A stretch of DNA of 64,000 nt. Source: a virus (lineage: Duplodnaviria > Heunggongvirae > Uroviricota > Caudoviricetes). Both the position numbers and the translations under genes were made by a program. This document shows positions 6,363 to 63,542 of the stretch, one piece after another. Numbering within the stretch: the first letter of the stretch is position 1; each line of letters opens with the position of its first letter. Location of the stretch: positions 287,171 through 351,170 of IMG/VR virus record IMGVR_UViG_3300028833_000001; one strand, 5' to 3'. Below the pieces are notes generated by a model. It was not told where the DNA came from, ran no database searches, and was given only the letters and a program-made list of their open reading frames with translations.

Positions 6363-8849
6363 ATGGATATTATACGTAAACAAGTAAGTGTTGATAGAGG
6401 CATTTCCCACACACCTGGGCTAATTCCGTATTATCCATATAATGATATAAATTCAAGCATTAGATTCGTTACTGGAATCGATGTTGATGGCAATTATAAT
6501 GAATATGTATGTGATTTTGGGAAGGTGGCCAGTTGTGTGTGTGGCGTAACAGAAACACTATCGTATTATAAAGAAGAAATCTGCACATCTGGCATTTCAG
6601 AGTCTGATAATTCTATAGAGGCTAGATTTAGGTATTGTGATGCCATACATCATTACCTGAAAATTTCGGAATCTCTTAGAACTGGTGTTTTCGGAAAGGT
6701 TGTTAAACATACAGAAACTACTGTTGTTAATGTAAATTGTTCAACTTCTGACCATAATTGTTCTGAAGGCCCAATAGAAGAAACAAATTCTGAAGACTAT
6801 TATGATATAGTGACTTGTTTTCATGAAACACCATCAAAATTTGAATTTAAACCGTTAGATTGTGACTTGTTTTCGCGTATTGACCAAAATATATATAGAT
6901 TAACTTATCCAGAAATAGACCCAGACGAACCACAAACAAGTGACGAGCCAGTTCAAATAGATATGAATATGGTTTTAAAAAGACAGGAAGCCGTCGAGTC
7001 GCTTGTAGAAGGGAATTTCGTTGTTTTAATTTCAAATTATGACGAAATTATTGGTTACGAAAACGAATGGAAGTCTTGGTGGGAAAAGTGGTTTGGAGAA
7101 GGATGGGAAACAATAGCATATGGTGAGTCATATGTTCAACCCAATGAGCCGTCTTTTTTCCCTTTTTGTCAGAATTTTGAAAAATATTTTTTAGGAAAAA
7201 ATTATGTACCAAATGAATTTGCTGAAAGCGCTATAACTGGGATTTACGTTCCAGAATATGTATATAATGCCGATTTATATAATTATATAACTTGGTTTGA
7301 AGAACGTAATATCGAAAGGGATGATGAACTGCAAAAAGATTGGGATAAACATGGCGGGGATGTTTTTTTTGAATATTTAAAGACACTGTCAACACGGTGG
7401 ATAACAGGAAACACAGAGCATGATTTTTCGATACAAGAGCCACAAACAAGGTTTAAATTTTTAACGCCATATGTTAGTGTTCCTATAGTATTGACGCAGT
7501 CAAATGACGTTGCCTGGAATTATGAAAGTTATTTAGATTCAAGTAGACCGTTTTTGCCAGAAGGGGAGTTTAGCGGATATTCGATTTTTAACAGTGGGCA
7601 TTTTGTTACGTTGTCTGATTCTGGCTATGTAGAATCAAAATTATCATTTGTAGCCGACAAAAAAGCAACATTTGTTGACGGTATTTTTGGCGTGTGGGAT
7701 GAAATGAGTATCAGTAATAGCAGTTCGAAAATTTTTGCTGGAACATATCATACAGGCAACAGTGCAACCATAGGTGTATCTGTTATTCGGAAAATTTATC
7801 ATAGTGGCGGTACTGTTGATATTATTCAATTACAAGAGCAAAATGTTTTAGAAGAAGCCCCAACCGTACAACCATCAACTTCAATGGTGCTATTGGTTAA
7901 TAAATTTTTGGATGCTACAGATGGTGCCAACACGCAAAATACAACACAAATAACAAGTGGCCCAGAAATTAATGGTGATATTGTTCTAATTGAAGAAATT
8001 ACAGCAACAACGAACTACAAATATGGCTGGTGGGAATTTCAAGAAACTGATGCTAATGTGTCTTGTGGAGATGGTGAAATAATACATCCTAACGACGAAA
8101 AGTATCAAACAGTCCAAACGATATCAAACGTTAAGACGATAGTTAAAAACCCACAAGAAAATGATTTGTATTACTTTTATGTTCAATATAACAACGGTGT
8201 TGTATGTACTGGAGGTACACAAGTAAAGGTGGACTCTAAAAATACAACAAAAAATTTCATGTTGCCATATAAAAGTGATACATATTTTGACATGGAATAT
8301 ATAACAACGGATAATAACGGTGATTTGTATGTTGGTAACTATATACCTCCATCTGGTGTGACAATTGAAAGCGGTTTTTGTACTATAAATTATGTCATTG
8401 GTGGTAGGGCATATTATAATTCACAAACATCAGCATACACACCAGTGACTTATAGCGGAATACATTATTCCGAGAGTTATCCATATATAACTGGGTATAA
8501 GTTAATTACGCTTGACGGTTATAAAAATCTTGATTTTTATTACGAAACACTTCAATATGATGCAAACATAGAAACTGCAATATACGAAGAGTATAAAAAA
8601 GAAAGAAAAGTAATTAGAGCAAAGCTTGTTGGGATGGAAGTCGGTACAACGTGGACCAGCGGAAATTCAATAATAGCGCCTATATTCACTGACGAATTTA
8701 CATCAACACAACAATATGACAATAAAAGCATAATGGATATTTCAATAGATAGAGGAGTTGCGGCTGCATTTGAAACTAATTATAAGTTAGGTGAATGTAA
8801 CACACTTGAAGATATTGAAAATTATTCAAACAACTTTTTTAAAATTTAA
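6363..8849 (+). CDS. large hypothetical, probable structural protein
   Basis: 828-aa ORF in the operon. Confidence 0.6.
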   Translation: MDIIRKQVSVDRGISHTPGLIPYYPYNDINSSIRFVTGIDVDGNYNEYVCDFGKVASCVCGVTETLSYYKEEICTSGISESDNSIEARFRYCDAIHHYLKISESLRTGVFGKVVKHTETTVVNVNCSTSDHNCSEGPIEETNSEDYYDIVTCFHETPSKFEFKPLDCDLFSRIDQNIYRLTYPEIDPDEPQTSDEPVQIDMNMVLKRQEAVESLVEGNFVVLISNYDEIIGYENEWKSWWEKWFGEGWETIAYGESYVQPNEPSFFPFCQNFEKYFLGKNYVPNEFAESAITGIYVPEYVYNADLYNYITWFEERNIERDDELQKDWDKHGGDVFFEYLKTLSTRWITGNTEHDFSIQEPQTRFKFLTPYVSVPIVLTQSNDVAWNYESYLDSSRPFLPEGEFSGYSIFNSGHFVTLSDSGYVESKLSFVADKKATFVDGIFGVWDEMSISNSSSKIFAGTYHTGNSATIGVSVIRKIYHSGGTVDIIQLQEQNVLEEAPTVQPSTSMVLLVNKFLDATDGANTQNTTQITSGPEINGDIVLIEEITATTNYKYGWWEFQETDANVSCGDGEIIHPNDEKYQTVQTISNVKTIVKNPQENDLYYFYVQYNNGVVCTGGTQVKVDSKNTTKNFMLPYKSDTYFDMEYITTDNNGDLYVGNYIPPSGVTIESGFCTINYVIGGRAYYNSQTSAYTPVTYSGIHYSESYPYITGYKLITLDGYKNLDFYYETLQYDANIETAIYEEYKKERKVIRAKLVGMEVGTTWTSGNSIIAPIFTDEFTSTQQYDNKSIMDISIDRGVAAAFETNYKLGECNTLEDIENYSNNFFKI

Positions 8850-51642: not shown

Positions 51643-52263
51643 ATGGAAAAATTATTTTACAAATGGCTTAGTAGCAGTAAGTATTTGAAGTTTCATCAAG
51701 AAATAAAAAACGCTTTACGCGTTATTAATGAATATAAACTTTATGAATCGCCAAAATTCTTTTCTGAAAATATTCAATTTGATAAAAACAATGAAACCTG
51801 TCTGATTGATTCTTCAAGTGAAAGTATTACTATTTGTAAAACTGTTGTTGAGTCTAAACAATCATATAACATATTTATCGGCAACATTCAAATTAGAGTT
51901 GAAGAAAATAATATTAATAAAGAACAGGTATATAGTATCCATATTAAAGAAAATAATGGGTTAAACTGGGAAATTAAAAGAAATGACGAAGATTTGGATT
52001 ATTGGGACTATTCACACCCGACAAACAAAACACTTAGAATTTTTGTTTGGTATGATGTACCAGTGTTAAACATCGCTCGTTCTGTTGGAGAAGTTTATGA
52101 AGCTGGAAACTGGAATAAGTATGTGTGCAAAACAATCGACTTTTTTACTACTGAAATTGATAAATGCACAGACTCATCAAGTTTCAACACAATGTATGAA
52201 GAATCGGATTGGGAAAATTTCAAAAATTGGTTTAAAAATTTGTTCAATAAAAAACAAATGTAA
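51643..52263 (+). CDS. hypothetical protein
   Basis: 206-aa ORF. Confidence 0.65.
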   Translation: MEKLFYKWLSSSKYLKFHQEIKNALRVINEYKLYESPKFFSENIQFDKNNETCLIDSSSESITICKTVVESKQSYNIFIGNIQIRVEENNINKEQVYSIHIKENNGLNWEIKRNDEDLDYWDYSHPTNKTLRIFVWYDVPVLNIARSVGEVYEAGNWNKYVCKTIDFFTTEIDKCTDSSSFNTMYEESDWENFKNWFKNLFNKKQM

Positions 52264-52379
52264 TAATAAATCAAATATGAAAAATACGATAGAATAATTT
52301 AAAAAAAAAACTTGATTTTTTTAAAAAATAATACTATTTATATTTTTGAAATCACATAAGAATTTTATATCATTGAAAT

Positions 52380-52505
52380 ATGTTAAATAACATCTTTAGG
52401 AATATAGACCCATTATATTTGGACGCCCATAACGGTATCCAACAAGAAAGTCTTGTTCCAACAAGAGCAAAAAATGAAAAACGTCTGAGGATGGTGGGAA
52501 AGTAA
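52380..52505 (+). CDS. possible 41-aa small ORF
   Basis: MLNNIFRNIDPLYLDAHNGIQQESLVPTRAKNEKRLRMVGK, followed by a strong terminator. Confidence 0.35.
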   Translation: MLNNIFRNIDPLYLDAHNGIQQESLVPTRAKNEKRLRMVGK

Positions 52506-52549
52506 ACAAACACAAAAACACATAGGTTTCTAACCACAACATATTTACC

Positions 52550-52590
52550 ACCACTGAAGACAATATAGAACATGTTTCAGTGGTTTTTTT
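52550..52590 (+). terminator. intrinsic terminator
   Basis: ACCACTGAAGACA...TGTTTCAGTGGT followed by a T-run. Confidence 0.85.
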
Positions 52591-52610
52591 ATGCCTGAAC
52601 CTATGTAAAC

Positions 52611-52691
52611 TGTCATTTTGACGTATTAAATGTCAATTTGGCACATAAGCATGACAAAATGCCATAAATTTAAATTGGCATGATGTTTGCA
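52611..52691 (+). promoter_or_regulatory. sigma-54 (-24/-12) promoter with upstream TGNCA-n3-TGNCA boxes
   Basis: TTGGCATGATGTTTGCA at 52675-52691. Boxes TGTCATTTTGAC, TGTCAATTTGGCA and TGACAAAATGCCA lie upstream. Confidence 0.65.
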
Positions 52692-52709
52692 TAAATAAAA
52701 AAACGACAT

Positions 52710-52782
52710 GGTGCCGTTAGCTCAGTGGGTAGAGCGCATGTCTGTGGAACATGAGGCGTTGGTTCAAATCCAACACGGCACC
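52710..52782 (+). tRNA. trnH: tRNA-His(GTG)
   Basis: Cloverleaf with G-1/C73 and anticodon loop CTGTGGA. Confidence 0.95.
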
Positions 52783-52794
52783 CGAAAAAAAAAG

Positions 52795-52852
52795 TTTGGA
52801 AGTTTAAAAAAAGATTTGTAATCTTACAAACACAAACGAGAGTTCTTTGAAA
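52795..52852 (+). promoter_or_regulatory. Bacteroidota-like promoter (TTTG...TAATCTTAC) plus boxA-like GTTCTTTGAAA
   Basis: A near-identical arrangement recurs at 53611-53643 and 53736-53747. Confidence 0.5.
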
Positions 52853-52865
52853 AAATTGAAATATA

Positions 52866-53310
52866 AAGTGATTGTGAGAATGATAGCAAAACAACTATCA
52901 TGCATAGGCGAGAAATCCCTATGTAGAATCTCCTAAATTCGGTAGAATCCTTAAAGGCGTTAGCCTTCGTAAGAGAGAAAATATGTAACCTCACTAAACA
53001 ATAATGTGGAAGGACTAACCGAGCGAAAATGTAATGCGGAATTTCAATAAGTTAGGAAGATATTACATAATCGTGTAGAGGCCAAACGGGAGATACCTAA
53101 GTTGGAATTTGTATAATTGAGGGATAGCGCAAGCAAGTATGTTTTCTTTTAACAGTTAACAGAACAATCAAATTATACATCTTGCAAGAATTCCAATATG
53201 GTAAGATGGTCCAGGCCACAACAACACTACAAGCAGTGTCGAAACCAGACATAAGTACTGTTGTAACAAAGTGTTGGCTATGATAACATAGTGTGGCATC
53301 ACAATTACTT
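52866..53310 (+). ncRNA. group I intron-like RNA, free-standing (no exons found)
   Basis: P3 ATCTCC/GGAGAT, P4 TTCGG/CCGAG, P6 CGA/TCG, P7 GAGGCCA/TGGTCC, P8 TACC/GGTA and P9 GCCAC/GTGGC. Closed by a terminal helix AAGTGATTGTGA/TCACAATTACTT. Confidence 0.75.
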
Positions 53311-53316
53311 TTACTT

Positions 53317-53389
53317 GCGCCCGTAACTCAGCTGGTAGAGTACATCCCTTTTAAGGATGGAGTCGTGGGTTCGAATCCCACCGAGCGCA
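53317..53389 (+). tRNA. trnK: tRNA-Lys(TTT)
   Basis: Cloverleaf with CATCC-CTTTTAA-GGATG. Confidence 0.95.
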
Positions 53390-53416
53390 CAATAATAAAT
53401 TTAAAATTATAATAAA

Positions 53417-53594
53417 ATGGAAGACGGGGCAAAAATTAAAAGAGTATCTTAAAAAAGAATTTGAATGGAATAATCATAAGAAGTATAGGAAATATTTTGA
53501 TGAATGGTATTCAAATTTAACAGAAAATCAAATACTATATTATAAAAGTTATTCTATTGGACAGAAATCACCATGGATTAAAATTGACAAATAA
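53417..53594 (+). pseudogene. small ORF with apparent frameshift in an A5 run
   Basis: ATG GAA GAC GGG GCA AAA A then stops. The shifted frame reads LKEYLKKEFEWNNHKKYRKYFDEWY...IDK*. Confidence 0.35.
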
Positions 53595-53654
53595 AAAAAA
53601 TGTAAGAAGATTTGGAAAATTTAAATTTAAATTGTATTCTTACATAGCGTTGAA

Positions 53655-53727
53655 CGGGTAGTGGCGCAGTTGGTAGCGCGCTTCATTTGGGATGAAGGGG
53701 TCGCAGGTTCGAGTCCTGTCTACCCGA
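53655..53727 (+). tRNA. trnP: tRNA-Pro(TGG)
   Basis: Cloverleaf with CTTCA-TTTGGGA-TGAAG. Confidence 0.95.
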
Positions 53728-53811
53728 CAAAAAAAGTTCTTTGACATATTGGAGAGAAGCTATTGAAATATATGTGGTAAAAACAATTTTTTGTTTTTAA
53801 AGCCAAATTAT

Positions 53812-53848
53812 ATCGTATAGTGGGCCTTTGTCTGCTGTACGATTTTTT
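53812..53848 (+). terminator. terminator-like hairpin inside the tRNA array
   Basis: 14-bp hairpin ATCGTATAGTGGGC/GTCTGCTGTACGAT followed by a T-run. Confidence 0.55.
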
Positions 53849-53849
53849 C

Positions 53850-53939
53850 GGAGGGGTGGCCGAGTGGTTTAAGGCAGCGGTCTTGAAAACCGCCGAGGTG
53901 TAACAGCCTCCGTGGGTTCGAATCCCACCCCCTCCGCCA
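53850..53939 (+). tRNA. trnS: tRNA-Ser(TGA)
   Basis: Long variable arm, loop CTTGAAA, encoded CCA. Confidence 0.95.
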
Positions 53940-54001
53940 TAATATAATGAAAACGTATATACATTTTGATTATCACAAATATTTATTAATAAACCAATAC
54001 T

Positions 54002-54718
54002 ATGAATCAGAAAAGAGAATACGTTAGAAAAAATTTGGATATAATAAACAAAATGATAGAAAACAAACGACCTAAGTTTGAAATAGCTAGGGTTTTGGGA
54101 GTTAAATATTCCACATTAGATAAATATTTAAAAGAATTTGGTATTGATTATAAAGGAAACCCAAATAGAAAGGGAATTCCGCATATGGAAGGAAGAATGC
54201 TAATTGAAGAATATTTAAATGGAAATAGAAACATACAAGCATCTAAACTAAGACAAAAACTAATAGAAAATGGTTTAAAAGAAGAAAAATGTGAATGCTG
54301 TGGGTTAACTGAATGGATGGGTAAAAAAATTCCGTTAGAACTTCACCATAAAAATATGAACCATAACGATAATAGTTTAGACAATCTTCAAATACTTTGT
54401 TCTAATTGTCATTCTTTAGCACATGAATATAATAATACAAAAGGTAAACCAGAAAGTTCTATTGATACTATTTTATTAAAAAAACGTGTTAAAGAGGTTG
54501 GTCATTGCAAACAGTGCGGAAAAGAATTAACAAATAGCCAGAAAATTTATTGTTCACAAGAGTGCGCTCATTTAAATGTTAGTAAAATACCACAAAAAAA
54601 CGAATTAATTGATAAATTAAATGAGTTTAACTGGAATAAAACAAAAACTGGTAAGTATTTTGGCGTAAGTGATAACGCAATTCGTAAATGGATTAAAAAG
54701 TACGACATAAAAAAATAA
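54002..54718 (+). CDS. HNH homing endonuclease with HTH domains
   Basis: CECCG...LELHHKN.NHNDNSLDNLQILCSNCH, a second CxxC..YCS..C finger and a C-terminal HTH. Confidence 0.9.
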   Translation: MNQKREYVRKNLDIINKMIENKRPKFEIARVLGVKYSTLDKYLKEFGIDYKGNPNRKGIPHMEGRMLIEEYLNGNRNIQASKLRQKLIENGLKEEKCECCGLTEWMGKKIPLELHHKNMNHNDNSLDNLQILCSNCHSLAHEYNNTKGKPESSIDTILLKKRVKEVGHCKQCGKELTNSQKIYCSQECAHLNVSKIPQKNELIDKLNEFNWNKTKTGKYFGVSDNAIRKWIKKYDIKK

Positions 54719-54719
54719 T

Positions 54720-54796
54720 ACCGCTGTGGGCAAATTGGTAAAGTCGGCTATTTTAGGGGTAGCGTCATATTGTCGGTTCGACTCCGACCAGCGGTA
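54720..54796 (+). tRNA. trnL: tRNA-Leu(TAG), short variable arm
   Basis: Acceptor ACCGCTG/CAGCGGT and GCTAT-TTTAGGG-GTAGC. Confidence 0.85.
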
Positions 54797-54809
54797 CAAT
54801 AAATAATTT

Positions 54810-54893
54810 GGCTCTGTGGTGGAATTGGTAGACACGACAGACTTAAAATCTGTTGTCCGAAAGGACGTGTGGGTTCGAGTCCCATTGGAGCCA
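54810..54893 (+). tRNA. trnL: tRNA-Leu(TAA)
   Basis: ACAGA-CTTAAAA-TCTGT with a long variable arm. Confidence 0.95.
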
Positions 54894-54898
54894 CATAA

Positions 54899-55044
54899 GC
54901 TCCTATAGTTCAATGGACAGAACAGAAGTTTCCTATACAAGAGTAAACTTGTTTAAATCATTTCTATGTGAAATTGGTTTTATTGGGTTCGAGTCCCACA
55001 CATAGAACAAACTTCAAATCTTGGTTCGAATCCAAGTAGGAGTA
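54899..55044 (+). tRNA. trnR: tRNA-Arg(CCT) interrupted by a 74-nt insert in the anticodon loop
   Basis: GAAGT-TTCCT[insert]AA-ACTTC. Acceptor, D and T arms are intact. Confidence 0.8.
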
Positions 55045-55063
55045 CTAAACACATAACATATAT

Positions 55064-55148
55064 GGGAGTGCGGTCACGATGGTGGAGTGGCGGCGGTCTG
55101 TAAAACCGTTACAACGAAACACAGTAGGTTCGAATCCTACCACTCCCA
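55064..55148 (+). tRNA. trnY: tRNA-Tyr(GTA)
   Basis: GCGGT-CTGTAAA-ACCGT. Confidence 0.9.
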
Positions 55149-55167
55149 CGAAACAGCGAACATGCAC

Positions 55168-55305
55168 AAGCGCAAACTGAAGGGGAATTGGTAAACCCTC
55201 GCCCCTAGATAACATCAGAGCAGGGAGGTTTGGTGAGGCAACCGTAAAAGTAATCCAGCATGTGTAGCAAGATGGAAGTTCTGGTTCGAGTCCAGATGAG
55301 CGCTT
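55168..55305 (+). ncRNA. enlarged tRNA-like RNA
   Basis: Ends AAGCGC/GCGCTT, D-arm AGGG-GAATTGGTAAA-CCCT, T-arm TCTGG-TTCGAGT-CCAGA. No canonical anticodon loop. Confidence 0.55.
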
Positions 55306-55315
55306 ATTTTATGAT

Positions 55316-55389
55316 GGGCCCATAGTGATAGTTGGTTAGCACGGGAGCTTTGCAAGCTCTTAGCCTGGGTTCGAGTCCCAGTGGGTCCA
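55316..55389 (+). tRNA. trnA: tRNA-Ala(TGC)
   Basis: G3.U70 pair and loop TTTGCAA. Confidence 0.92.
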
Positions 55390-55395
55390 CAAATT

Positions 55396-55568
55396 AAAAA
55401 CAAACAAGGAGAGTGGGCTCGGTGATAAAAAACCTTGTATGAAATGGGTTACAGGGGAAAACCGAAAAATAATGTCCTGCAAAGGATATTCACACGTAGG
55501 CTGGTTAATTATCGTGGCCAGGGCCTTTGCTATCAGGTGACTACGCAAATCCTGATGTGTTTGTTTTT
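55396..55568 (+). ncRNA. unknown multibranch structured RNA
   Basis: Terminal helix AAAAACAAACA/TGTTTGTTTTT enclosing four hairpins. Confidence 0.55.
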
Positions 55569-55606
55569 TTTGGTTCTATGGCTGAACTAGTAGACGCGAC
55601 AGAGTC

Positions 55607-55662
55607 ATCAAGGCAAAAGAACGGTTCGACTCCTTAGTGTAACGGTAGCACATTGTCTTGAT
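55607..55662 (+). ncRNA. circularly permuted tRNA-elbow-like RNA
   Basis: Helix ATCAAGGCAA/TTGTCTTGAT encloses a T-loop (GGTTCGACTCC) followed by a D-arm (GTGT-AACGGTA-GCAC). Confidence 0.5.
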
Positions 55663-55670
55663 TTTCTCAC

Positions 55671-55758
55671 GGAGGGTTACCCAAGCTGGTGAAGGGGACG
55701 GTTTGCTAAACCGTTAGGTCACGAAAGTGGCGCGAGAGTTCGAGCCTCTCACCCTCCG
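55671..55758 (+). tRNA. trnS: tRNA-Ser(GCT)
   Basis: ACGGT-TTGCTAA-ACCGT with a long variable arm. Confidence 0.95.
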
Positions 55759-55892
55759 CAAACAAATTTGGCTTTATAATACACATAAAGGACACACTCG
55801 CCAATACCAATTGGCAAGCGAGAGAAGTTAGCGCAGGACGGAATTGAGGCCGTAAGTGTGATAGTGAAATGTAAAGTGTATTTTTTGATAAA

Positions 55893-55963
55893 TGCTGTGA
55901 TGGTGTAATAGGAAGCATCACCAGAATATCTGGAGGTACAGGTTCAAGTCCGAAACACAGCAT
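55893..55963 (+). ncRNA. tRNA-like RNA with 3-nt anticodon loop
   Basis: Acceptor TGCTGTG/CACAGCA, CCAGA-ATA-TCTGG and a weak T-arm. Confidence 0.55.
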
Positions 55964-55977
55964 TGTTTTTAATATAT

Positions 55978-56092
55978 GTGTTGATGGCGCAATGGTAGAC
56001 GCACACATGCACGTGGTTCGCGGTTCGAGTCCGCAAGTAGTTGGGCACAACGAAAAAATGGTAGAATGATGGTTCGAATCCATCTCAACACA
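55978..56092 (+). ncRNA. tRNA-like RNA with two T-arms
   Basis: Acceptor GTGTTGA/TCAACAC, D-arm, internal GCGG-TTCGAGT-CCGC and terminal GATGG-TTCGAAT-CCATC. Confidence 0.6.
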
Positions 56093-56099
56093 CAATAAA

Positions 56100-56279
56100 T
56101 CCCCTATTAGTTCAATTGGCAGAACGTAGTTATATCAATTCTTTGACGAAAGAATAAATTGTATAACTAAGGTTGTAATTATTTTGTGAAGTAGTGACTT
56201 GTTGACAATGGGTGCGCAACAGAATCAAAGATTAGAGCTGTGAATCATTTTAACGGGGTTCGAATCCAACATAGGGGAC
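56100..56279 (+). ncRNA. giant tRNA-like RNA (~180 nt)
   Basis: Acceptor TCCCCTAT/ATAGGGGA, canonical D-arm, extended TAGTTATA/TATAACTA arm, very long variable region, TTCGAAT loop. Confidence 0.6.
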
Positions 56280-56291
56280 AGGTATAAGTAT

Positions 56292-56361
56292 CGGGATGTA
56301 GTTTAATGTTAAAATAATTGTGCTTAGGACAGTGATATAGGTGCGAATCCTATCATCTCGG
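56292..56361 (+). tRNA. Pro-like tRNA paralog with non-canonical anticodon loop (GCTTAGG)
   Basis: Body nearly identical to the next tRNA-Pro and with the same 3' trailer CAAATATTTCATA. T-loop is TGCGAAT. Confidence 0.5.
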
Positions 56362-56394
56362 CAAATATTTCATATAGTATAAACATAATAGCAT

Positions 56395-56527
56395 CGGGAT
56401 GTAGTTTAATTTGGTAAAATGCGTTAATTTTTTCGTGTTTTGTTCTTTAAAAACACAGACAGCAACTTTTCTTTAAAATTATTGTTTTGGGGAAACCGTG
56501 TTATAGGTTCGAATCCTATCATCCCGA
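56395..56527 (+). tRNA. trnP: tRNA-Pro(GGG) with 60-nt insert between positions 28/29
   Basis: CG[56424-56483]GTT-TTGGGGA-AACCG, with C1-G72 and A73. Confidence 0.75.
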
Positions 56528-56541
56528 CAAATATTTCATAT

Positions 56542-56615
56542 GGGCCATCAGTCCAGTTGGAGTGGATGCCACCCTGTCACGGTGGAGAACGCGGGTTCGA
56601 GTCCCGCATGGCCCG
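56542..56615 (+). tRNA. trnD: tRNA-Asp(GTC)
   Basis: CCACC-CTGTCAC-GGTGG. Confidence 0.95.
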
Positions 56616-56625
56616 CTTTATAAGC

Positions 56626-56739
56626 AACATTCCCAGTGAAAAAGGGTTAGTAGTAGCGTTGTACAGCCAGTAACCCTGAGATAGTATCAAAATCAACGGT
56701 TAGACGTAGATGAACTGTAAGTACAACTTTGGGAATGTT
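56626..56739 (+). ncRNA. unknown pseudoknotted RNA
   Basis: Terminal helix AACATTCCCA/TGGGAATGTT. The loop segment GTTGTAC of hairpin AGGGTTA/TAACCCT is complementary to GTACAAC at 56721-56727. Confidence 0.6.
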
Positions 56740-56753
56740 TGTAATAATAAAAT

Positions 56754-56827
56754 AGCGGATTAGCTCAGTTGGTTAGAGCAGTACTCTTATAAAGTAAAGG
56801 TCCCCAGTTCAAGCCTGGGATTCGCTA
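56754..56827 (+). tRNA. trnI: tRNA-Ile(TAT)
   Basis: TACT-CTTATAA-AGTA with intact arms. Confidence 0.85.
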
Positions 56828-56837
56828 CAATCAATAG

Positions 56838-57018
56838 TGCGGGATGGAGCAGAGGTCAGCTCGTCAGGCTCAATACAGAGTGGTTTTCTGAAAAAAACTG
56901 TTGATGCCAATTGTTCAAGAGAAGAGCCGATACACAATCAAATTGTGTGTCGAGGCTGGTTCGAGTCCAGCTGGCGTCGCTAACCTGAAGGTCGGGGGTT
57001 CGAATCCCTCTCCCGCTA
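56838..57018 (+). tRNA. trnfM: initiator-type tRNA-fMet(CAT) interrupted by a 108-nt insert containing a nested tRNA-like fold
   Basis: 1:72 mismatch, GGAGCAG..GCTCG D-arm and TCAGG-CTCA[56873-56980]TAA-CCTGA. Confidence 0.8.
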
Positions 57019-57022
57019 CAAA

Positions 57023-57211
57023 TCCAGGTGCATAACGATTTGAAACCGTAGTGGGTGTTAAAACCACAGCCTGGAATAATAAGATTGCAGCAATACTAGT
57101 CAGGCTGGTCTTTCCGTGAAAGTCGGACGTATTACCATGCAACGATAGCGTTGATACCTGTATAATGGCAGGTGTAGCAAATGGCCCGTCAGGTCGCTAC
57201 TGACGGTTTTT
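57023..57211 (+). ncRNA. run of unknown hairpin/junction RNAs ending in a terminator-like hairpin
   Basis: TCCAGG/CCTGGA junction, ATACCTGT/GCAGGTGT hairpin, CCGTCAG/CTGACGG followed by T5. Confidence 0.45.
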
Positions 57212-57213
57212 AT

Positions 57214-57290
57214 GGGGCTGTAGCTCAGTTGGAAGAGCGCTGGACTGAAAATCCAGGACGTTAGCGGTGGTTCGATTCCACCCAGCCCCG
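57214..57290 (+). tRNA. trnF: tRNA-Phe(GAA)
   Basis: CTGGA-CTGAAAA-TCCAG with a slightly long variable loop. Confidence 0.9.
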
Positions 57291-57398
57291 CGTGAAAGGA
57301 TGTAGTGTTCTTTGCCGTGTTTCAACAAAGTGCATCAACCAGCCTTTTGGATGTGGCGCCCAAGTCCATGAAAGGAGGACAAAATGAAAGCGGAGTAT

Positions 57399-57473
57399 GG
57401 GCTCGTAGCTCAGTCTGGTAGAGCATCTGATTTGCAATCAGAGGGTCATTGGTTCAAATCCCATCGTGGTCCA
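57399..57473 (+). tRNA. trnA: tRNA-Ala(TGC), second copy (imperfect acceptor/T stems)
   Basis: TCTGA-TTTGCAA-TCAGA. Confidence 0.8.
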
Positions 57474-57528
57474 CAAGCGATATCCGAATCAGTGAAATTA
57501 TCGTTCAATGAGTTGAAAGAAGATATCA

Positions 57529-57601
57529 AGTGTTTAGTATATCGGAAGTACGTTACCAAGAACGAGTTGGTAAAAGTGTGAGTTCGAATCCCACAACACT
57601 A
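57529..57601 (+). ncRNA. tRNA-like RNA, 7-bp anticodon stem, loop GAACGAG
   Basis: Acceptor AGTGTT/AACACT, D-arm, TTACCAA/TTGGTAA and TTCGAAT loop. Confidence 0.55.
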
Positions 57602-57608
57602 TAATAAT

Positions 57609-57679
57609 AGGTTCCTAGTTCAATGGTAGAATAATGGTCTCCAAAACCATAGATTGAGGTTCGAGTCCTTGGGTTCCTG
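57609..57679 (+). tRNA. trnW: tRNA-Trp(CCA)
   Basis: ATGGT-CTCCAAA-ACCAT, with two U.U mismatches in the acceptor. Confidence 0.88.
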
Positions 57680-57688
57680 CAATAAAAT

Positions 57689-57771
57689 AGCCAAGTGGCG
57701 GAATGGTAGACGCGAAGGTCTCAAAAACCTTTGGGGTAACCCCCGTGCGGGTTCAAGTCCCGCCTTGGCTA
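57689..57771 (+). tRNA. trnL: tRNA-Leu(CAA)
   Basis: AAGGT-CTCAAAA-ACCTT with a long variable arm. Confidence 0.95.
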
Positions 57772-57786
57772 CTGATAGAAAAATAA

Positions 57787-57855
57787 AGGATACATACAGC
57801 AAACCTTTTTTTTAAGCATCAAACTTTTAATTTGAAAACGCTAAGAAAGTATCCT
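57787..57855 (+). ncRNA. free-standing ACAGCAA element displaying a Lys(UUU) anticodon stem-loop
   Basis: Closing helix AGGATAC/GTATCCT, ATACAGCAA bulge and TCAAA-CTTTTAA-TTTGA. Confidence 0.65.
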
Positions 57856-57862
57856 GTTTTAA

Positions 57863-57935
57863 CGCCCTATCGACAAGTGGTTTAAGTCATCACCCTTTCA
57901 CGGTGGAGTCACGGGTTCGAATCCCGTTGGGGCGA
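57863..57935 (+). tRNA. trnE: tRNA-Glu(TTC)
   Basis: TCACC-CTTTCAC-GGTGG. Confidence 0.95.
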
Positions 57936-57954
57936 CAATAAAAAAAAATCAAAA

Positions 57955-58497
57955 ATGGAACAAGACGAATTGAATCACAACAGGCGTGTTTTCGCAAATA
58001 TTAACAAATTAGATATTGAAGATGTCCATCCAATCCCAAAGGTCGAATTAGTTGTTGGGAAAACATATAAAGGCAATTGTAGGAATTCAGATAATGCGGT
58101 TTGGGATGGAAAAGTATTTTGGTACGACAGGCACAAGTTTGGTAGTACATTTAGGGAAAGTATAAATCACTACGAAGATGATGATGGTTACGATGTTTTT
58201 GTCCCATTTGAAACAGATGAATCGTTTATTGTTCTTCCAGAAGATTCGGTTAAGAAACTTTCTGATAGAGATTATTGGGGTACTATTGAGAAAATATTTA
58301 TGGAAATTACCAATTTGATGACGGAAAAAGCATTTATTAATGAAGCTAAACATATGTACCCAAATATGTCAGATGAAGACATTAGAAAACAATTGAAAAA
58401 CATGCTTTACGATAATTATGGAAATATTGTAAGAGGTGCTGATATGTTTGATTTTAGTGGTAAGTTAAAAGGTGAACCAGGAACTCCTGGAAAATAA
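57955..58497 (+). CDS. hypothetical protein within the tRNA array
   Basis: 180-aa ORF with YKGNCRN...W...F.Y.R.KFG....INH.EDDDGYDVFVP. Confidence 0.75.
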   Translation: MEQDELNHNRRVFANINKLDIEDVHPIPKVELVVGKTYKGNCRNSDNAVWDGKVFWYDRHKFGSTFRESINHYEDDDGYDVFVPFETDESFIVLPEDSVKKLSDRDYWGTIEKIFMEITNLMTEKAFINEAKHMYPNMSDEDIRKQLKNMLYDNYGNIVRGADMFDFSGKLKGEPGTPGK

Positions 58498-58512
58498 TAA
58501 AACAAAAAAAAC

Positions 58513-58585
58513 GCCGATGTAGCTCAATTGGCAGAGCGTTACACTTGTAATGTAAATATTGTAGGTTCGATTCCTATCATCGGCT
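58513..58585 (+). tRNA. trnT: tRNA-Thr(TGT)
   Basis: TTACA-CTTGTAA-TGTAA. Confidence 0.95.
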
Positions 58586-58653
58586 CTTAAAATAAAATTT
58601 ATCCCGAAACGTGTTTTTAGCTTTTTATGACTATTTATAAAAAAAATAGTAAT

Positions 58654-59358
58654 ATGAATAATTTTGAAAATTGCAAATCGTTAAATGACATTGCTAGGCA
58701 AGAATTTGGAAAAGCAAACTATACTAATCGTGAGAAAGCTAAAAAACTATTATTTGAACACGGAATAGATTGGTTAGATTGGCTAGAATCTATTAAAATT
58801 TCTAATAAAAAGTTTTGTCTTGTTTGTGGTAAAGAATTAAGAAATGGTCAAACAAAATTTTGCAGCCATTCATGTTCTGCTGGATATAACAATAAGTTTC
58901 GAAAAACATATAAAGATAATGAAAGCCGAGAACATCATGAAAAAATTACCAAAAGTGACAAATTCTGTTTGTATTGTGGCGCAAAATTAACAAATCAACA
59001 AAAATTATTTTGTAATAATAAATGTCAACAAGATTTCAAGTATAAAGAATATATAGACCGATGGATAAATGGTGATGAAAATGGTTTAAAGGGCCAGTAT
59101 TCTTTATCAAGGCACATCAGGCGATTTTTATTGGAAAAAACAAATTGTAAATGTGAAAAATGTGGCTGGGGAGAAAAAAATCCATATACAAACACAATCC
59201 CATTAGAAATACATCATATTGATGGTGATTATACAAATAACAAGGAAGAGAATCTTCAGGTTTTGTGTCCAAATTGTCATTCTTTAACAGAAACACACAA
59301 ATCACATAATAAGAACGGAAGACAAGGTAGAAGAAAATATTATAAAAAAACAGAATAA
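58654..59358 (+). CDS. HNH homing endonuclease
   Basis: Two CxxCG..FC..C fingers and CEKCG...LEIHHIDGDYTNNKEENLQVLCPNCH. Start set at the second ATG, downstream of ACTATTTAT. Confidence 0.9.
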   Translation: MNNFENCKSLNDIARQEFGKANYTNREKAKKLLFEHGIDWLDWLESIKISNKKFCLVCGKELRNGQTKFCSHSCSAGYNNKFRKTYKDNESREHHEKITKSDKFCLYCGAKLTNQQKLFCNNKCQQDFKYKEYIDRWINGDENGLKGQYSLSRHIRRFLLEKTNCKCEKCGWGEKNPYTNTIPLEIHHIDGDYTNNKEENLQVLCPNCHSLTETHKSHNKNGRQGRRKYYKKTE

Positions 59359-59361
59359 GCT

Positions 59362-59622
59362 AAAGCTCTTTACCGATACGTAGCGGTAAATGGTGCGTAC
59401 CCAGGGTCAGACGCACGGTTGTATTCTGTACCTATATATGGATGATGTACAGCTTTTATGTGTAGGTTAAACAAATATGGCCCGACCAATAATATCTTAA
59501 TGCTGAGCGTGAATGAAGAAAACGGAAACCAAAGGCAACATAGCTGTAGCAGAATTTGATTGCAATGGATAACAGTGAAACACGCAAGATTCAGTAGATA
59601 ATGCTTTGACGGTTGCATTAAG
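59362..59622 (+). ncRNA. two unknown structured RNA domains
   Basis: Hairpins TTTACCG/CGGTAAA, GTGCGT/ACGCAC and CTGTAC/GTACAG. A second domain is closed by CTTAATGC/GCATTAAG. Confidence 0.45.
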
Positions 59623-59628
59623 GTAGCA

Positions 59629-59699
59629 AGTGGAGTAGCTTTATAAGGATGAGCCTTGGATTTTACCAAGAGGTGGTAGTTCGAATCTGCCCTCCACAA
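59629..59699 (+). ncRNA. tRNA-like RNA with 6-nt anticodon loop (ATTTTA)
   Basis: GTGGAG/CTCCAC, CTTGG/CCAAG and GGTAG-TTCGAAT-CTGCC. Confidence 0.55.
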
Positions 59700-59917
59700 C
59701 AAAAGCAAACGAAACCAGTTGACCAGATGGGATAAAACGCATAGTCATCCGTGATGCCACTGCGGATTAATAAATAGATGGCTAAGACGGAGGTAACGTT
59801 ACCGTTTAAACAACTATATTTTTAATGCTGACAGAGCGGGCGTGGAAAGTTCTTGAAATGTTAATATAAAACTGCCAGAATCGCAAAATTGTACGGGTTT
59901 GCACGTGCAAAACTTTT

Positions 59918-59989
59918 GGGGAGGTAGCTCAACGGTAGAGCAACTGGCTGTTAACCAGTAGGTTGTGGGTTCGAAACCCACCCTCCCCG
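59918..59989 (+). tRNA. trnN: tRNA-Asn(GTT)
   Basis: ACTGG-CTGTTAA-CCAGT. Confidence 0.95.
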
Positions 59990-59994
59990 CGAAT

Positions 59995-60407
59995 ATACCA
60001 ATTAACAGTAGGCTTGAAAGCAGCCATCTGATAATGAGTTGCGAGAGGAAGTTTGCGTGGAAGTCATGACTCCGCAAAATAACAAGGCGCATGTGAGTAA
60101 CTTGGCAATAAGCATGTGAGAAACACCTCAGGAATAGCGAACGTGGAAATCCCCGATGCAAAGAAAGGAACACAGTTGAAATACTGTGCGAGGTTCCAGT
60201 AGCGTGACGGTGCATCGAAGCTATGTAGCTAAGTTTTATGTAAGCCCCAACAGTACGAGAGGAACCTGGGGTCAATGGGTGCCATGAATTTGGTTTCTAT
60301 GCCGTAAGTGAGTCGGTAAAGAACGCGAGAAGTATCAAGTGAAGACTCGCGCCCAAAAGCATAAAACAGTCCTTAGAGCATTTGGCGTGGCAGCACATAA
60401 TTGGTAT
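59995..60407 (+). ncRNA. 23S rRNA-mimic RNA: GTPase-associated centre (H42-44) + sarcin-ricin loop
   Basis: Closing helix ATACCAATTA/TAATTGGTAT, H43-like CAGTAGGCTTGAAAGCAGCCATCTG, H44-like GCGTGGCAGCACA, and SRL AGTACGAGAGGAACC at 60252-60266 in a GCCCCA/TGGGGT helix. Confidence 0.85.
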
Positions 60408-60410
60408 TAT

Positions 60411-60482
60411 GCGGGTATAGCACAACGGTTAGTGTGCCAGCTTGCCATGCTGGAAATGTCAGTTCGATTCTGATTACCCGCT
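60411..60482 (+). tRNA. trnG: tRNA-Gly(GCC)
   Basis: CCAGC-TTGCCAT-GCTGG. Confidence 0.93.
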
Positions 60483-60487
60483 CATAT

Positions 60488-60561
60488 GGCGGCATAGCGG
60501 AGTTGGTTTCATGCGCCGCTCTCATAAGGCGGAGACGGTGGTTCGAATCCACCTGCCGCCA
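60488..60561 (+). tRNA. trnM: tRNA-Met(CAT) elongator (or lysidine Ile2)
   Basis: CCGCT-CTCATAA-GGCGG with a paired G1-C72. Confidence 0.88.
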
Positions 60562-60562
60562 C

Positions 60563-60787
60563 AAGTCAAGAACAGACCACCGAGTAGTGTTCGGGGTAAA
60601 TTGAATGGGGATGTATACTTAACCAGTCAATGTAGTCTTGGGTGGTGTGACCCTCAGCCCGATGAAAAGTGTCAGTTATCGTGAGGTACTGTAGCGCAAC
60701 GCAACAGGAGGTAAAACCCTATGTGGTAACGCAATCCTCGTCTAGCCGAGGTTTCTCCAGTCCGTAGCTCGTAAATTTTCTTGACTT
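60563..60787 (+). ncRNA. unknown ~225-nt multibranch RNA
   Basis: Perfect 10-bp terminal helix AAGTCAAGAA/TTCTTGACTT enclosing several GC-rich hairpins. Confidence 0.6.
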
Positions 60788-60796
60788 ATTTTTTTT

Positions 60797-60915
60797 CGGG
60801 GAGTAGCTCAGTTGGTTAGAGCGCGTAATGTAGATTCTTGTAAAAGAATCAAACAGCAATGTTTACGAATGTCATTTGAAGACCGTGGTCGTGGGTTCGA
60901 GTCCCACCTCCCCAG
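60797..60915 (+). tRNA. Gln(TTG)-anticodon tRNA with 45-nt insert between positions 28/29
   Basis: CG[60826-60870]GTC-ATTTGAA-GACCG, canonical D and T arms, C1.A72 and G73. Confidence 0.7.
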
Positions 60916-60923
60916 CAAATTAT

Positions 60924-61078
60924 ATTTGGCTAATTTGAGGTTCAAGAAGGCCCCCGTAAGATGGACAATCGTGGGGGCAATGCTTGAGATGGATACTGTG
61001 AAGGGACAGCCATAAGTCATGAAGTACAGTTAGATGTGGGGTCTGGTGGAATGACAGACTGTGTAGGATTAACCAAAT
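60924..61078 (+). ncRNA. unknown ~155-nt multibranch RNA
   Basis: Closing helix ATTTGGCTAAT/ATTAACCAAAT, with GCCCCC/GGGGGC, TCAAG/CTTGA and GTCTG/CAGAC. Confidence 0.55.
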
Positions 61079-61082
61079 TTAT

Positions 61083-61153
61083 TGAGCCATCGTCTAACGG
61101 CAAGACACCAGATTTTGGTTCTGGGAATCGAGGTTCGAATCCTCGTGGCTCAA
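61083..61153 (+). tRNA. trnQ: tRNA-Gln(TTG)
   Basis: CCAGA-TTTTGGT-TCTGG with U1-A72. Confidence 0.93.
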
Positions 61154-61160
61154 CAAACAA

Positions 61161-61233
61161 CTTCCCATAGTTCAATGGATTAGAACGTGAGTCCACGAAA
61201 CTCAAGATTGGGGTTCGAGTCCCTGTGGGGAGA
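61161..61233 (+). tRNA. trnR: tRNA-Arg(ACG)
   Basis: TGAGT-CCACGAA-ACTCA (C33). Confidence 0.88.
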
Positions 61234-61271
61234 CTTAATACATATATCGAAATAGTTTCAATCCAGAATAT

Positions 61272-61346
61272 GCGTCTGTAGCTCAGTTTGGTTAGAGCAC
61301 TACACTGATAATGTAGGGGTCGCTGGTTCAAGTCCAGCCAGACGCA
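61272..61346 (+). tRNA. trnI: tRNA-Ile(GAT)
   Basis: CTACA-CTGATAA-TGTAG. Confidence 0.95.
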
Positions 61347-61379
61347 CTTGAGTTGATGCTAACATGGCACAACTATTAT

Positions 61380-61455
61380 GCGGGTGTAGCTCAGTTGGTT
61401 CAGTAGCGCTTGCCTTACAAGCAAGAGGTCGTAGGTTCGACTCCTACCATCCGCA
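61380..61455 (+). tRNA. trnV: tRNA-Val(TAC)
   Basis: CTTGC-CTTACAA-GCAAG. Confidence 0.93.
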
Positions 61456-61465
61456 CATTTATTAT

Positions 61466-61540
61466 GCTCCAGTAGCTCAATGGATGAGCGGCACCCTTCT
61501 AAGGTGCGGGTTGTAGGTTCGAGTCCTACCTGGAGTACCA
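61466..61540 (+). tRNA. trnR: tRNA-Arg(TCT)
   Basis: GCACC-CTTCTAA-GGTGC with encoded CCA. Confidence 0.95.
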
Positions 61541-61615
61541 TATATAGATAGGGCCGAATTGGTGATGGAATGCCAAAGTTAAATAAGCTTTGGTAAGTAA
61601 AGAAATGTTATCATT

Positions 61616-61861
61616 ATGAGTGAATTTGGAGAATTTAAAAGAAATAATTATTTGGTCAATCATCCGTATGGTAATCCATATGAGAATAAAGCATTTGTGC
61701 TTACTGCGGAGCAACAAAAAGAGCTTGAACGCAAAGTGGATTTAGAATGGACATTGTATTATTTGAAGAAAGCAATTAGATTGTTTGGTGATATTAAAAT
61801 CAGTGATGCAATTGCCAAAACAAAACACGAACTTGAGCCTAAAATCAATTTTAAGCATTAA
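61616..61861 (+). CDS. hypothetical protein
   Basis: 81-aa ORF after the array. Confidence 0.6.
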   Translation: MSEFGEFKRNNYLVNHPYGNPYENKAFVLTAEQQKELERKVDLEWTLYYLKKAIRLFGDIKISDAIAKTKHELEPKINFKH

Positions 61862-61877
61862 AAATGCATGTTTTAAA

Positions 61878-63542
61878 TTAAAAACCGCAATATGAAATTG
61901 TTTGAGATTGCATTTCAGCCCATATTGATGATGACCCGCTTAATTTAAGGTCGGTATTGTAGGCATGCGTCTTCCAGCATGGTTCGCATAGAATATATGA
62001 TATATCAGCGTTTAATTCAATTTGAAGTGAATAATTATGAGTACTTGACGTTCCAGTTGCAGTTAAAGACGCATCTGTAAGTGTTTGGTTTGTATATGCC
62101 ACGCCAGAAGAAGTTGATATTGTTGTAGTTGTATCAGTATAATATGGGGCGACATATGTTAATTCAAATGTTTCAGAGACTATTGAAGTGTTTGTTGTGT
62201 TGTCAAATAAGGTGTATATGGCGCTACCGCTAAGAACTGTTATTGAGTGAAATTTTGAATATGTAATACCACTTAAATAACAATTAATTATTGGTGACGC
62301 AATCATAATGGTTGTAGCGTTTGGGGCTGAAAATGTTGCAACATTTCCAGTAAGTGACATATTTCCTGAATATACACGCGCATTTGAAAACCATTCAGAA
62401 CTATTTTGGTCGAATGACCCAGCTAGGTTTGAAAAATCTTCAATTGAAGTATAGTTATTATAATCAGTCGATGGAGTGTATGTTTTAATACTTGTAACTT
62501 CACCGCTCCAGTAAGATGTAGTGATATACCCAGTAATTGGTGGGTTTTCAGGAAAATCATCTCCAGGGTTATAAGGATTAGTTCTTAAATAATCTTCAAT
62601 TCTAAGTGTAAGTATATCTTGATTTGTGGCTATTGTACTGTAAACAAAAGGTTGGTTACTCAATTCAGGCGGTTGCTGCACTCTTGAATAATTTTTATAG
62701 TTACCAAGACTTTGTGCTATATTTGGTATTATATCAGGAAACGTTTCTTCAAGTCTTAAATTTGATGCAACCTCTCCGTCTCCGCTTAAAATATGATTAA
62801 AGCTATTATATAGCGCAAAGATATTACTACTAGTTTGCGTTGCTTCGTATAGTCTTGTGGTTTTTATTGATGGTTTAAACCCATTACGTGATGCTTTAAA
62901 ATAAGATATAGTACCAGGTATCCCGCTTACATATGTGTTGTTTCCAGTATTACCTGTTACTACGATATTACCATCATGCCCAGAATATACATAATTTACA
63001 TTAGAAATTGAACAATTATTGGTGTCTATAAAGTTATGCGTTGTACTGATTGGGAATTGTCTGACATTAACTGAACCAATTTTAGGGTATGATGGCGAAA
63101 AAGTTTTAATACCAGTTTCAACACCGTCATATATTTCAGAATATATTGTCCAATAGAATGGGTTATCGTCACCGTGAATTTCGTCAGCCACATAATCAAA
63201 GTATCCGTTTTCCCTTGTAGAAAGCGTGAAAGGTATGAACGTATTCCCTGTCATGGTATATCGTTTGTCTCTTTGATATTTGTCTATTTCTCTAGAGTCC
63301 AACCAAGGAGGAAGATATAATGTATTCGTAATAACAACACCAGAATTCCAAATTGACACGTCGCGTCCGCTGTTTCTTTCTAACAGACTTCTGCATTGTG
63401 TAACATTTCCTCCGCTCACAATAAAAAATGGGTTTGTTTGTCTGTCAGTTATGATAATAGAGTTTTCTATTGGCGTTCTTCCGTCAGCATGATAAACAGA
63501 AAAATTAAATTCAAATTTCCAAAATAATTTATTTACAGCCAT
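61878..63542 (-). CDS. hypothetical Ser/Thr-rich, probable virion protein
   Basis: 554 aa, preceded by CTATTTAT (63561-63568, - strand). Confidence 0.7.
   Translation of the reverse strand: MAVNKLFWKFEFNFSVYHADGRTPIENSIIITDRQTNPFFIVSGGNVTQCRSLLERNSGRDVSIWNSGVVITNTLYLPPWLDSREIDKYQRDKRYTMTGNTFIPFTLSTRENGYFDYVADEIHGDDNPFYWTIYSEIYDGVETGIKTFSPSYPKIGSVNVRQFPISTTHNFIDTNNCSISNVNYVYSGHDGNIVVTGNTGNNTYVSGIPGTISYFKASRNGFKPSIKTTRLYEATQTSSNIFALYNSFNHILSGDGEVASNLRLEETFPDIIPNIAQSLGNYKNYSRVQQPPELSNQPFVYSTIATNQDILTLRIEDYLRTNPYNPGDDFPENPPITGYITTSYWSGEVTSIKTYTPSTDYNNYTSIEDFSNLAGSFDQNSSEWFSNARVYSGNMSLTGNVATFSAPNATTIMIASPIINCYLSGITYSKFHSITVLSGSAIYTLFDNTTNTSIVSETFELTYVAPYYTDTTTTISTSSGVAYTNQTLTDASLTATGTSSTHNYSLQIELNADISYILCEPCWKTHAYNTDLKLSGSSSIWAEMQSQTISYCGF

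Follow-up and report, generated by a model that had tools for sequence, protein, structure and literature searches.

A 74-nt insert in a phage tRNA-Arg(CCU) gene is best explained as an intron from a family that is conserved, modular and mobile and that carries a nested tRNA-like element

The tRNA-Arg(CCU) gene at positions 54899-55044 of the window (i.e., the whole 64,000-nt stretch of phage DNA that was analyzed) is interrupted by a 74-nt insert, which is best explained as a genuine intron. The family to which it belongs occurs in phage tRNA genes and is conserved, modular and mobile. The window corresponds to positions 287171-351170 of an IMG/VR phage record of 361,445 bp (G000), which is rated 100% complete and has a GC content of ~33%. 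An insert just 3′ of the anticodon, at 54935-55008, had been proposed in an earlier note prepared from the nucleotide sequence alone, and its presence was borne out by both programs used to search for tRNA genes. The full length of 54899-55044 is covered by the Rfam tRNA model RF00005 (51.3 bits; E = 4e-8 for the whole window), with ~76 nt skipped in the anticodon loop, and ARAGORN, with introns allowed, placed a 74-nt intron at position 37 of a tRNA-Arg(cct). When the two exons were joined in silico, ARAGORN run without introns called the product as tRNA-Arg(cct); it is 72/73 nt long, canonical in form and has an anticodon loop of 7 nt. The contiguous anticodon arm of this spliced form matches that of ~38 uninterrupted phage tRNA-Arg(CCU) genes, and the interrupted gene is the sole Arg(CCU) gene that ARAGORN identified in G000. 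The parts of the gene, together with a second interrupted gene of the window, are as follows:

54899..54934, + strand: 5′ exon of tRNA-Arg(CCU), comprising the 5′ strand of the acceptor, the D arm, the 5′ strand of the anticodon stem and the loop to U36 (RF00005, ARAGORN).
54935..54961, + strand: leader module of the intron, comprising ATA, a hairpin (CAAG/CTTG) with the loop AGTAAA, and an A/U-rich linker.
54962..55007, + strand: nested tRNA-like minihelix, comprising an acceptor-like helix, a GG linker and a T arm (covariation).
55008..55008, + strand: last base of the intron, an invariant C equivalent to position 74 of the nested element.
55009..55044, + strand: 3′ exon of tRNA-Arg(CCU), from A37 to the discriminator (Rfam, ARAGORN, joined-exon call).
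56838..57019, + strand: interrupted, initiator-like tRNA-Met(CAU) gene, with a 108-nt intron of the same grammar at 56873-56980.

In the leader of the Arg intron, 54938-41 pairs with 54948-51 to form the small hairpin. The nested element begins with an acceptor-like helix of 8 bp (54962-69 paired with 55000-07), which is joined by a 13-nt GG-containing linker (54970-82) to a T arm at 54983-54999 with the stem 54983-87/54995-99 and the loop TTCGAGT (54988-94). A predicted fold recovered the helices of the insert, and the z-score of the whole gene was -3.2. The acceptor and T arm at the end of the insert are as first described, but what had been written as a trailing "N-C" was refined: the N belongs to an eighth base pair (-1:73) and is followed by the invariant C. 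The string AAACTT, previously regarded as a copy of the start of the 3′ exon, is likewise present, but it forms part of the conserved AGTAAA-CTTG hairpin and mismatches the exons of other copies. Pairing of this string with the 5′ anticodon strand, also suggested, is not a feature of the family, as the exons of the Phe, Tyr, Asn and Thr copies are unmatched.

Pattern scans and a covariance model identified homologous inserts in other phages and in metagenome contigs. The family numbers at least 17 copies, spread over four huge phages and a number of metagenome contigs, and the interrupted genes are those for tRNA-Arg, fMet, Phe, Asn, Tyr and Thr; the copies in Phe(GAA), Asn(GUU), Tyr(GUA) and Thr(UGU) genes are from G001, two more huge-phage records and the contigs. 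G001 is a 302-kb phage in which scans of IMG/VR revealed an orthologous interrupted tRNA-Arg(CCU) gene. Its intron has a 26-nt leader almost identical to that of the window, followed by a longer and different nested element, and three compensatory pairs separate the acceptor-like helices of the two Arg introns. All copies share a common grammar, consisting of (A/U)(A/U)A, a short hairpin with an A-rich loop and an A-rich linker, followed by an 8-bp acceptor-like helix, a "D-loop" with GG, a 5-bp T stem, a TTCGANT loop and the invariant C. The distance from the T stem to the end of the intron was exactly 9 nt in all 15 parsed copies, made up of seven bases of the acceptor, one further base paired with position -1, and the terminal C (15/15), whereas the distance from the 5′ splice site to the nested element varied from 24 to 29 nt. 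The GG was present in 14 of 15 linkers, and the region corresponding to the anticodon arm of the nested element ranged from absent to class-II-like.

The structure of the nested element is well supported by covariation. When 12 distinct copies were compared, pairing was seen in 98% of the cells that make up the 13 acceptor and T-stem pairs, and double changes occurred in 11 of the 13 pairs, a count equalled by none of 2000 shuffles. A covariance-model-fitted alignment, which leans towards the model and takes in some ordinary tRNAs, gave a covariation score of 0.84, as compared with 0.19 for shuffles and ≤0.125 for slid partners. Covariation was counted on the parsed and model-fitted alignments because a MAFFT alignment of whole introns placed the 5′ acceptor strand wrongly in three rows. 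Leaders were 77-100% identical between different host tRNAs and phages (58-65% for the fMet leader), and the leader hairpin stem also covaries (CAG/CTG, CAAG/CTTG, ATGG/CCAT, CAGAG/TTCTG). The nested elements were 41-70% identical and are the part conserved in structure, the leader being the part conserved in sequence. Taken together, the homologs in other phages, the covariation and the intact exons uphold the earlier view that the Arg and fMet inserts share a design and are not the product of random decay.

A 15-nt pattern across the exon/intron junction produced mainly chance matches and one true homolog, and a loose ATACARAG...T-loop pattern produced ~70 chance matches upstream of ordinary tRNAs and one new member. 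A 17-nt stretch identical to the leader precedes a chromosomal tRNA-Arg of Shewanella salipaludis and was taken as chance rather than as a family member because near-matches in other Shewanella fall within a coding gene. No homolog of the tRNA array or of the introns was found in the GenBank phage collection, and the flanking 206-aa and 554-aa ORFs returned no match when used as queries for relatives.

The fMet copy was informative with regard to the splice boundaries. Its intron splits the CAU anticodon between A35 and U36, and its nested element has a full, cloverleaf-like fold, with a layout otherwise like that of the Arg intron. The gene is initiator-like owing to a 1:72 mismatch, and ARAGORN detected no other initiator-like tRNA gene in G000. 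Since the Met anticodon can be rebuilt in only one way, this copy fixes the boundaries of the whole family, with ATACA at the start and C at the end. By this rule, the splice position lies at 35/36 in Phe, Tyr, Asn and fMet genes and at 36/37 in Arg and Thr genes. Because the position differs between host tRNAs, recognition must reside in the intron.

Deletion of the intron in silico restored a canonical tRNA in 15 of 15 copies, in each case with a 7-nt anticodon loop, and the differences between the Arg exons of G000 and G001 were confined to loops or preserved pairing. The exons thus look functional and appear to be under selection, as judged from the canonical spliced products, the structure-preserving changes between diverged phages and the absence from G000 of any other gene for the anticodons concerned. 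The same observations count against the proposal that no splicing occurs and that the insert is a selfish or exapted tRNA-like cassette, whose product would be a small RNA released by RNase P and RNase Z while the host tRNA is inactivated or left as halves. The nested element does have everything needed for release by tRNA-processing enzymes, and the array holds many other tRNA-like RNAs that lack anticodon loops. Such a release would resemble that of mascRNA from MALAT1; mascRNA, the t-elements of plant mitochondria and mitochondrial tRNA punctuation all involve non-decoding, tRNA-shaped elements positioned, as here, such that cuts by RNase P and RNase Z would set the ends of adjacent RNAs, but the present element lies inside another tRNA, the flanking pieces of which would need to be rejoined. 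One chimeric or decayed copy also fits an unspliced cassette. This copy (L136, minus strand, 49-191) has a Tyr-type 5′ exon, an AAACAG leader, and a 3′ acceptor strand and 3′ exon that do not fit, and could represent true decay or an assembly chimera. Given the integrity of the exons, we regard an unspliced cassette as distinctly unlikely.

Several comparisons bear on the mobility of the intron. An intact tRNA-Tyr gene of G001 has an interrupted near-ortholog in a metagenome contig, providing an intron-less counterpart. Two phages, L126 and L127, carry an identical tRNA-Tyr with an identical leader and unrelated nested elements, and a nested element of 88% identity is found in the Tyr gene of L126 and in the Phe gene of L127. 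On the basis of these sequence comparisons, the intron element is modular and moves between tRNA genes.

The Arg and fMet genes lie in an array of 26 ordinary tRNA genes at 52.7-61.5 kb of the window (52711-61540), all on one strand, that also contains interrupted and tRNA-like genes. Among the 24 ordinary genes that could be parsed well, position 74 was C in every case, CCA was encoded by only two, and position -1 was able to pair with the discriminator in 18. Genes for a CCA-adding-type nucleotidyltransferase were found in G000 and in G001. The array has a number of other unusual components. A tRNA gene at 56292-56362 has the anticodon TTA, which would decode the UAA stop codon, and is similar in sequence to the adjoining interrupted gene at 56395-56527. 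The latter gene and another at 60797-60915 contain a second, distinct class of tRNA insert, in which a hairpin is followed by ACAGCAA; this class also interrupts tRNA genes at L051:12044-12168 and in L056, L059, L068, and L078, with unrelated IMG/VR phages among its carriers. Several tRNA-like genes between 55570 and 56280 keep their acceptor and T arms and have anticodon regions that are foreign or missing, and one of the tRNA-like genes (~55975-56095) has a second T-arm hairpin inside without an ATACA leader. Free-standing ORFs for HNH-type endonucleases occur within the array at 54002-54718 and 58627-59358, one of them ~180 nt upstream of the Arg gene, and these may drive gene conversion in the array. 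The tRNA array of the related phage G001 includes a permuted (two-piece) tmRNA gene (L051:11003-11195).

Group I introns of bacteria are classically hosted by genes for tRNA-Arg(CCU) and tRNA-fMet, and the Agrobacterium intron in tRNA-Arg(CCU) lies at the position after U36. Bacterial group I introns (IC3 type; tRNA-Leu, fMet, Arg(CCU), and Ile) resemble the present intron in the domain of life, the kind of host gene and the loop that is interrupted. They are, however, >200 nt in length, as opposed to 74 nt here, and the insert lacks a match to their core and a terminal G, while a U at the 5′ splice site is not obligatory here. Searches of the insert with Rfam yielded no match to any ribozyme, including group I (RF00028); no group I match was present in window positions 52000-62000 at E ≤ 1, or in the whole of G000 even at E ≤ 10. 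A group I intron was therefore rejected: the insert is far too short, it has no match to the P3-P9 core of RF00028, all 15 parsed copies have C in place of the terminal G, and the last base of the 5′ exon is A in Phe and fMet genes.

A structured RNA of 445 nt, located at about 52840-53316 of the window, is conserved in all four intron-bearing phages and occurs in G001 as two tandem copies just upstream of the Arg(CCU) gene. This RNA may resemble IC3 cores. Its constant company and its duplication beside the G001 Arg gene, together with the standing of the two host genes as classic group I sites, would be in keeping with catalysis by RNA, in which the intron would be either a new, small self-splicing ribozyme or a substrate spliced in trans by the 445-nt RNA. 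A link of this sort, to a nearby exon-less group I RNA at 52866-53310, had been thought suggestive but did not hold up: the 445-nt RNA had no Rfam match, group I included, even at E ≤ 10, and its complementarity to the intron leader was no better than that of shuffled controls. What remains is co-occurrence among related phages. The terminal C, the A at the end of some 5′ exons and the absence of an Rfam ribozyme match to the insert speak against RNA catalysis as well, and the interior of the nested element is freely replaceable, unlike a catalytic core. We consider RNA catalysis to be quite improbable.

The short introns of archaeal and eukaryal tRNAs, which are processed by EndA/TSEN with RtcB or Trl1, provide another point of comparison. 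Like the present intron, they are non-catalytic, located in or near the anticodon loop and, presumably as here, removed by proteins. They reside at position 37/38, whereas the phage family occupies 35/36 or 36/37 depending on the host tRNA, with its recognition elements in the intron. A bulge-helix-bulge intron was rejected because no such motif, with two 3-nt bulges flanking a 4-bp helix, could be drawn by hand at the junctions, because the position is variable and non-canonical, and because the four phages lack an EndA gene. Conservation of the leader across hosts and phages suggests one specific reader, as would be expected if a dedicated endonuclease of phage or host recognized the leader and the tRNA elbow and made both cuts, leaving 2′,3′-cyclic phosphate and 5′-OH ends to be joined by the RtcB of the host. 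Splicing would then proceed in the archaeal/eukaryal style, under a recognition rule that is new. In its favor, RtcB is common in bacteria, including Bacteroides in our control panel, and the phage Rnl ligase of G000 was not found in the other three phage records, all of which are incomplete. Conversely, genes of the EndA family (PF01974) are absent from all four phages, no phage-encoded RtcB was found, and a dedicated endonuclease of this kind would leave unexplained why the end of the nested element matches that of the array tRNAs up to C74. We therefore view it as an unlikely explanation.

Of the mechanisms considered, we prefer excision by endonucleases of the tRNA end-processing type, combined with a separate, leader-directed cut and with ligation, so that protein enzymes rather than a ribozyme would be responsible. 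We assign this reading a probability of roughly 40%. The coaxial acceptor/T stack and the elbow of tRNAs are the features read by RNase P, RNase Z and CCA-adding enzymes. These are the parts that the nested element keeps, while its other parts vary freely, and its 3′ end repeats the signature of the array tRNAs (C74). Judging from its predicted structure, the nested element carries the structural prerequisites of a substrate of RNase P and RNase Z. End-processing is favored because the 3′ splice site falls precisely after the C74-like base. As we infer it, the nested element would act as a built-in handle, comprising the coaxial stack, the T-loop/GG elbow and the C at position 74. An RNase Z-like 3′-end endonuclease would cut right after this C to free the 3′ exon, and RNase P could cut the 5′ side of the handle. 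The 5′ splice site would be set by the leader, with its three A/U bases and small hairpin, and would be read by a sequence- or structure-specific endonuclease. The exons would be held together by the acceptor and anticodon stems of the host tRNA until an RNA ligase seals them to produce a functional tRNA-Arg(CCU).

Two aspects of enzyme specificity complicate this scheme. RNase Z normally cuts after N73, one base earlier than C74; following such a cut, the 3′ exon would begin with an additional C, which argues against the end-processing model. The conservation of C74 could instead stem from recognition by RNase P or from a stop for exonuclease trimming. Furthermore, a cut by RNase P would leave the 24-29 nt of the leader as a tail on the 5′ exon, so a further endonuclease would be needed at the 5′ site. 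With respect to ligation, G000 encodes an RNA ligase with a PHA02142 OB domain and PF09414 (at about 6975-8222 on the minus strand, within G000:C1:5511-9083, L052), located outside the window. The ligase gene adjoins a VWA/DUF7788 gene and a DUF932 gene. The enzyme belongs to a widespread phage family without a tie to these introns, and a ligase of this type was not found in G001-G003, the records of which are 82, 60, and 41% complete, respectively. No RNase Z-like metallo-beta-lactamase gene was found in the phages, and a search for the T4 Rnl1 family was uninformative, as it gave no match in the phages or even in the controls.

Introns described as "enigmatic" and highly conserved were previously reported in tRNA genes of Lak megaphages (Devoto et al., 2019, Nat Microbiol, PMC6784885). 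According to Supplementary Table 6 of PMC6784885, genes for Gly(TCC), Thr(TGT), Phe(GAA), and "Tyr(GTA)" are interrupted in these phages. The authors noted a possible tRNA within the Thr intron, obtained no classification from Rfam and placed the true boundary one base away from the tRNAscan prediction (PMC6784885). The Lak introns likewise interrupt the anticodon loops of phage tRNAs. Their first bases, (A/T)TACA(A)G or TTAACAG, belong to a short hairpin whose loop is A-rich, and an A-rich linker follows. A tRNA-like element with a TTCGA T-loop is nested within them, and the last base before the 3′ exon is C, all as observed here. This likeness was judged by eye from the strings in Supplementary Table 6 (PMC6784885), the search of the GenBank phage collection having produced no scored match to the intron family. 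The one-nucleotide offset of the Lak boundaries agrees with the boundary rule derived here. When the ATACA...C rule was applied to the class-I "tRNA-Tyr(GTA)" of Lak A1/A2/C1 (PMC6784885), the anticodon became that of Asn(GTT). We conclude that the window intron is of the same kind as the Lak introns, i.e., previously seen and unexplained; a literature search found no later paper on the mechanism of Lak-type introns. The Lak phages are ~540 kb in size with 26% GC, compared with 361 kb and ~33% for G000, and Arg(CCU) and initiator Met are new hosts relative to the Lak introns. The nested element of the Arg copy is the most reduced, its acceptor helix and T arm being separated by a linker of just 13 nt.

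To our knowledge, bacteria and their viruses are not supposed to have tRNA introns other than self-splicing group I introns. The Lak exceptions are now a defined object, with exact boundaries, a leader conserved in sequence, an interchangeable elbow conserved in structure, an invariant C and mobility between host genes. The existence of such introns has practical consequences for annotation, as the interrupted genes, among them that for the sole initiator tRNA of the phage, are missed by standard bacterial tRNA finders, and eukaryote-mode finders put the boundary one base off, which alters the anticodon (Asn vs. Tyr). The mechanism of splicing is directly testable, whether RNase P/Z-type enzymes are put to a new use together with a ligase or whether an endonuclease or a ribozyme of a new kind is responsible. 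We tentatively suggest, as a possibility with the odds somewhat against it, that phages of bacteria have a third route of tRNA splicing, in which the intron would present a tRNA elbow to end-maturation enzymes, a leader hairpin would direct the second cut and a ligase would reseal the tRNA. If this is true, excision would in addition set free the exchangeable nested element as a small tRNA-like RNA of its own.
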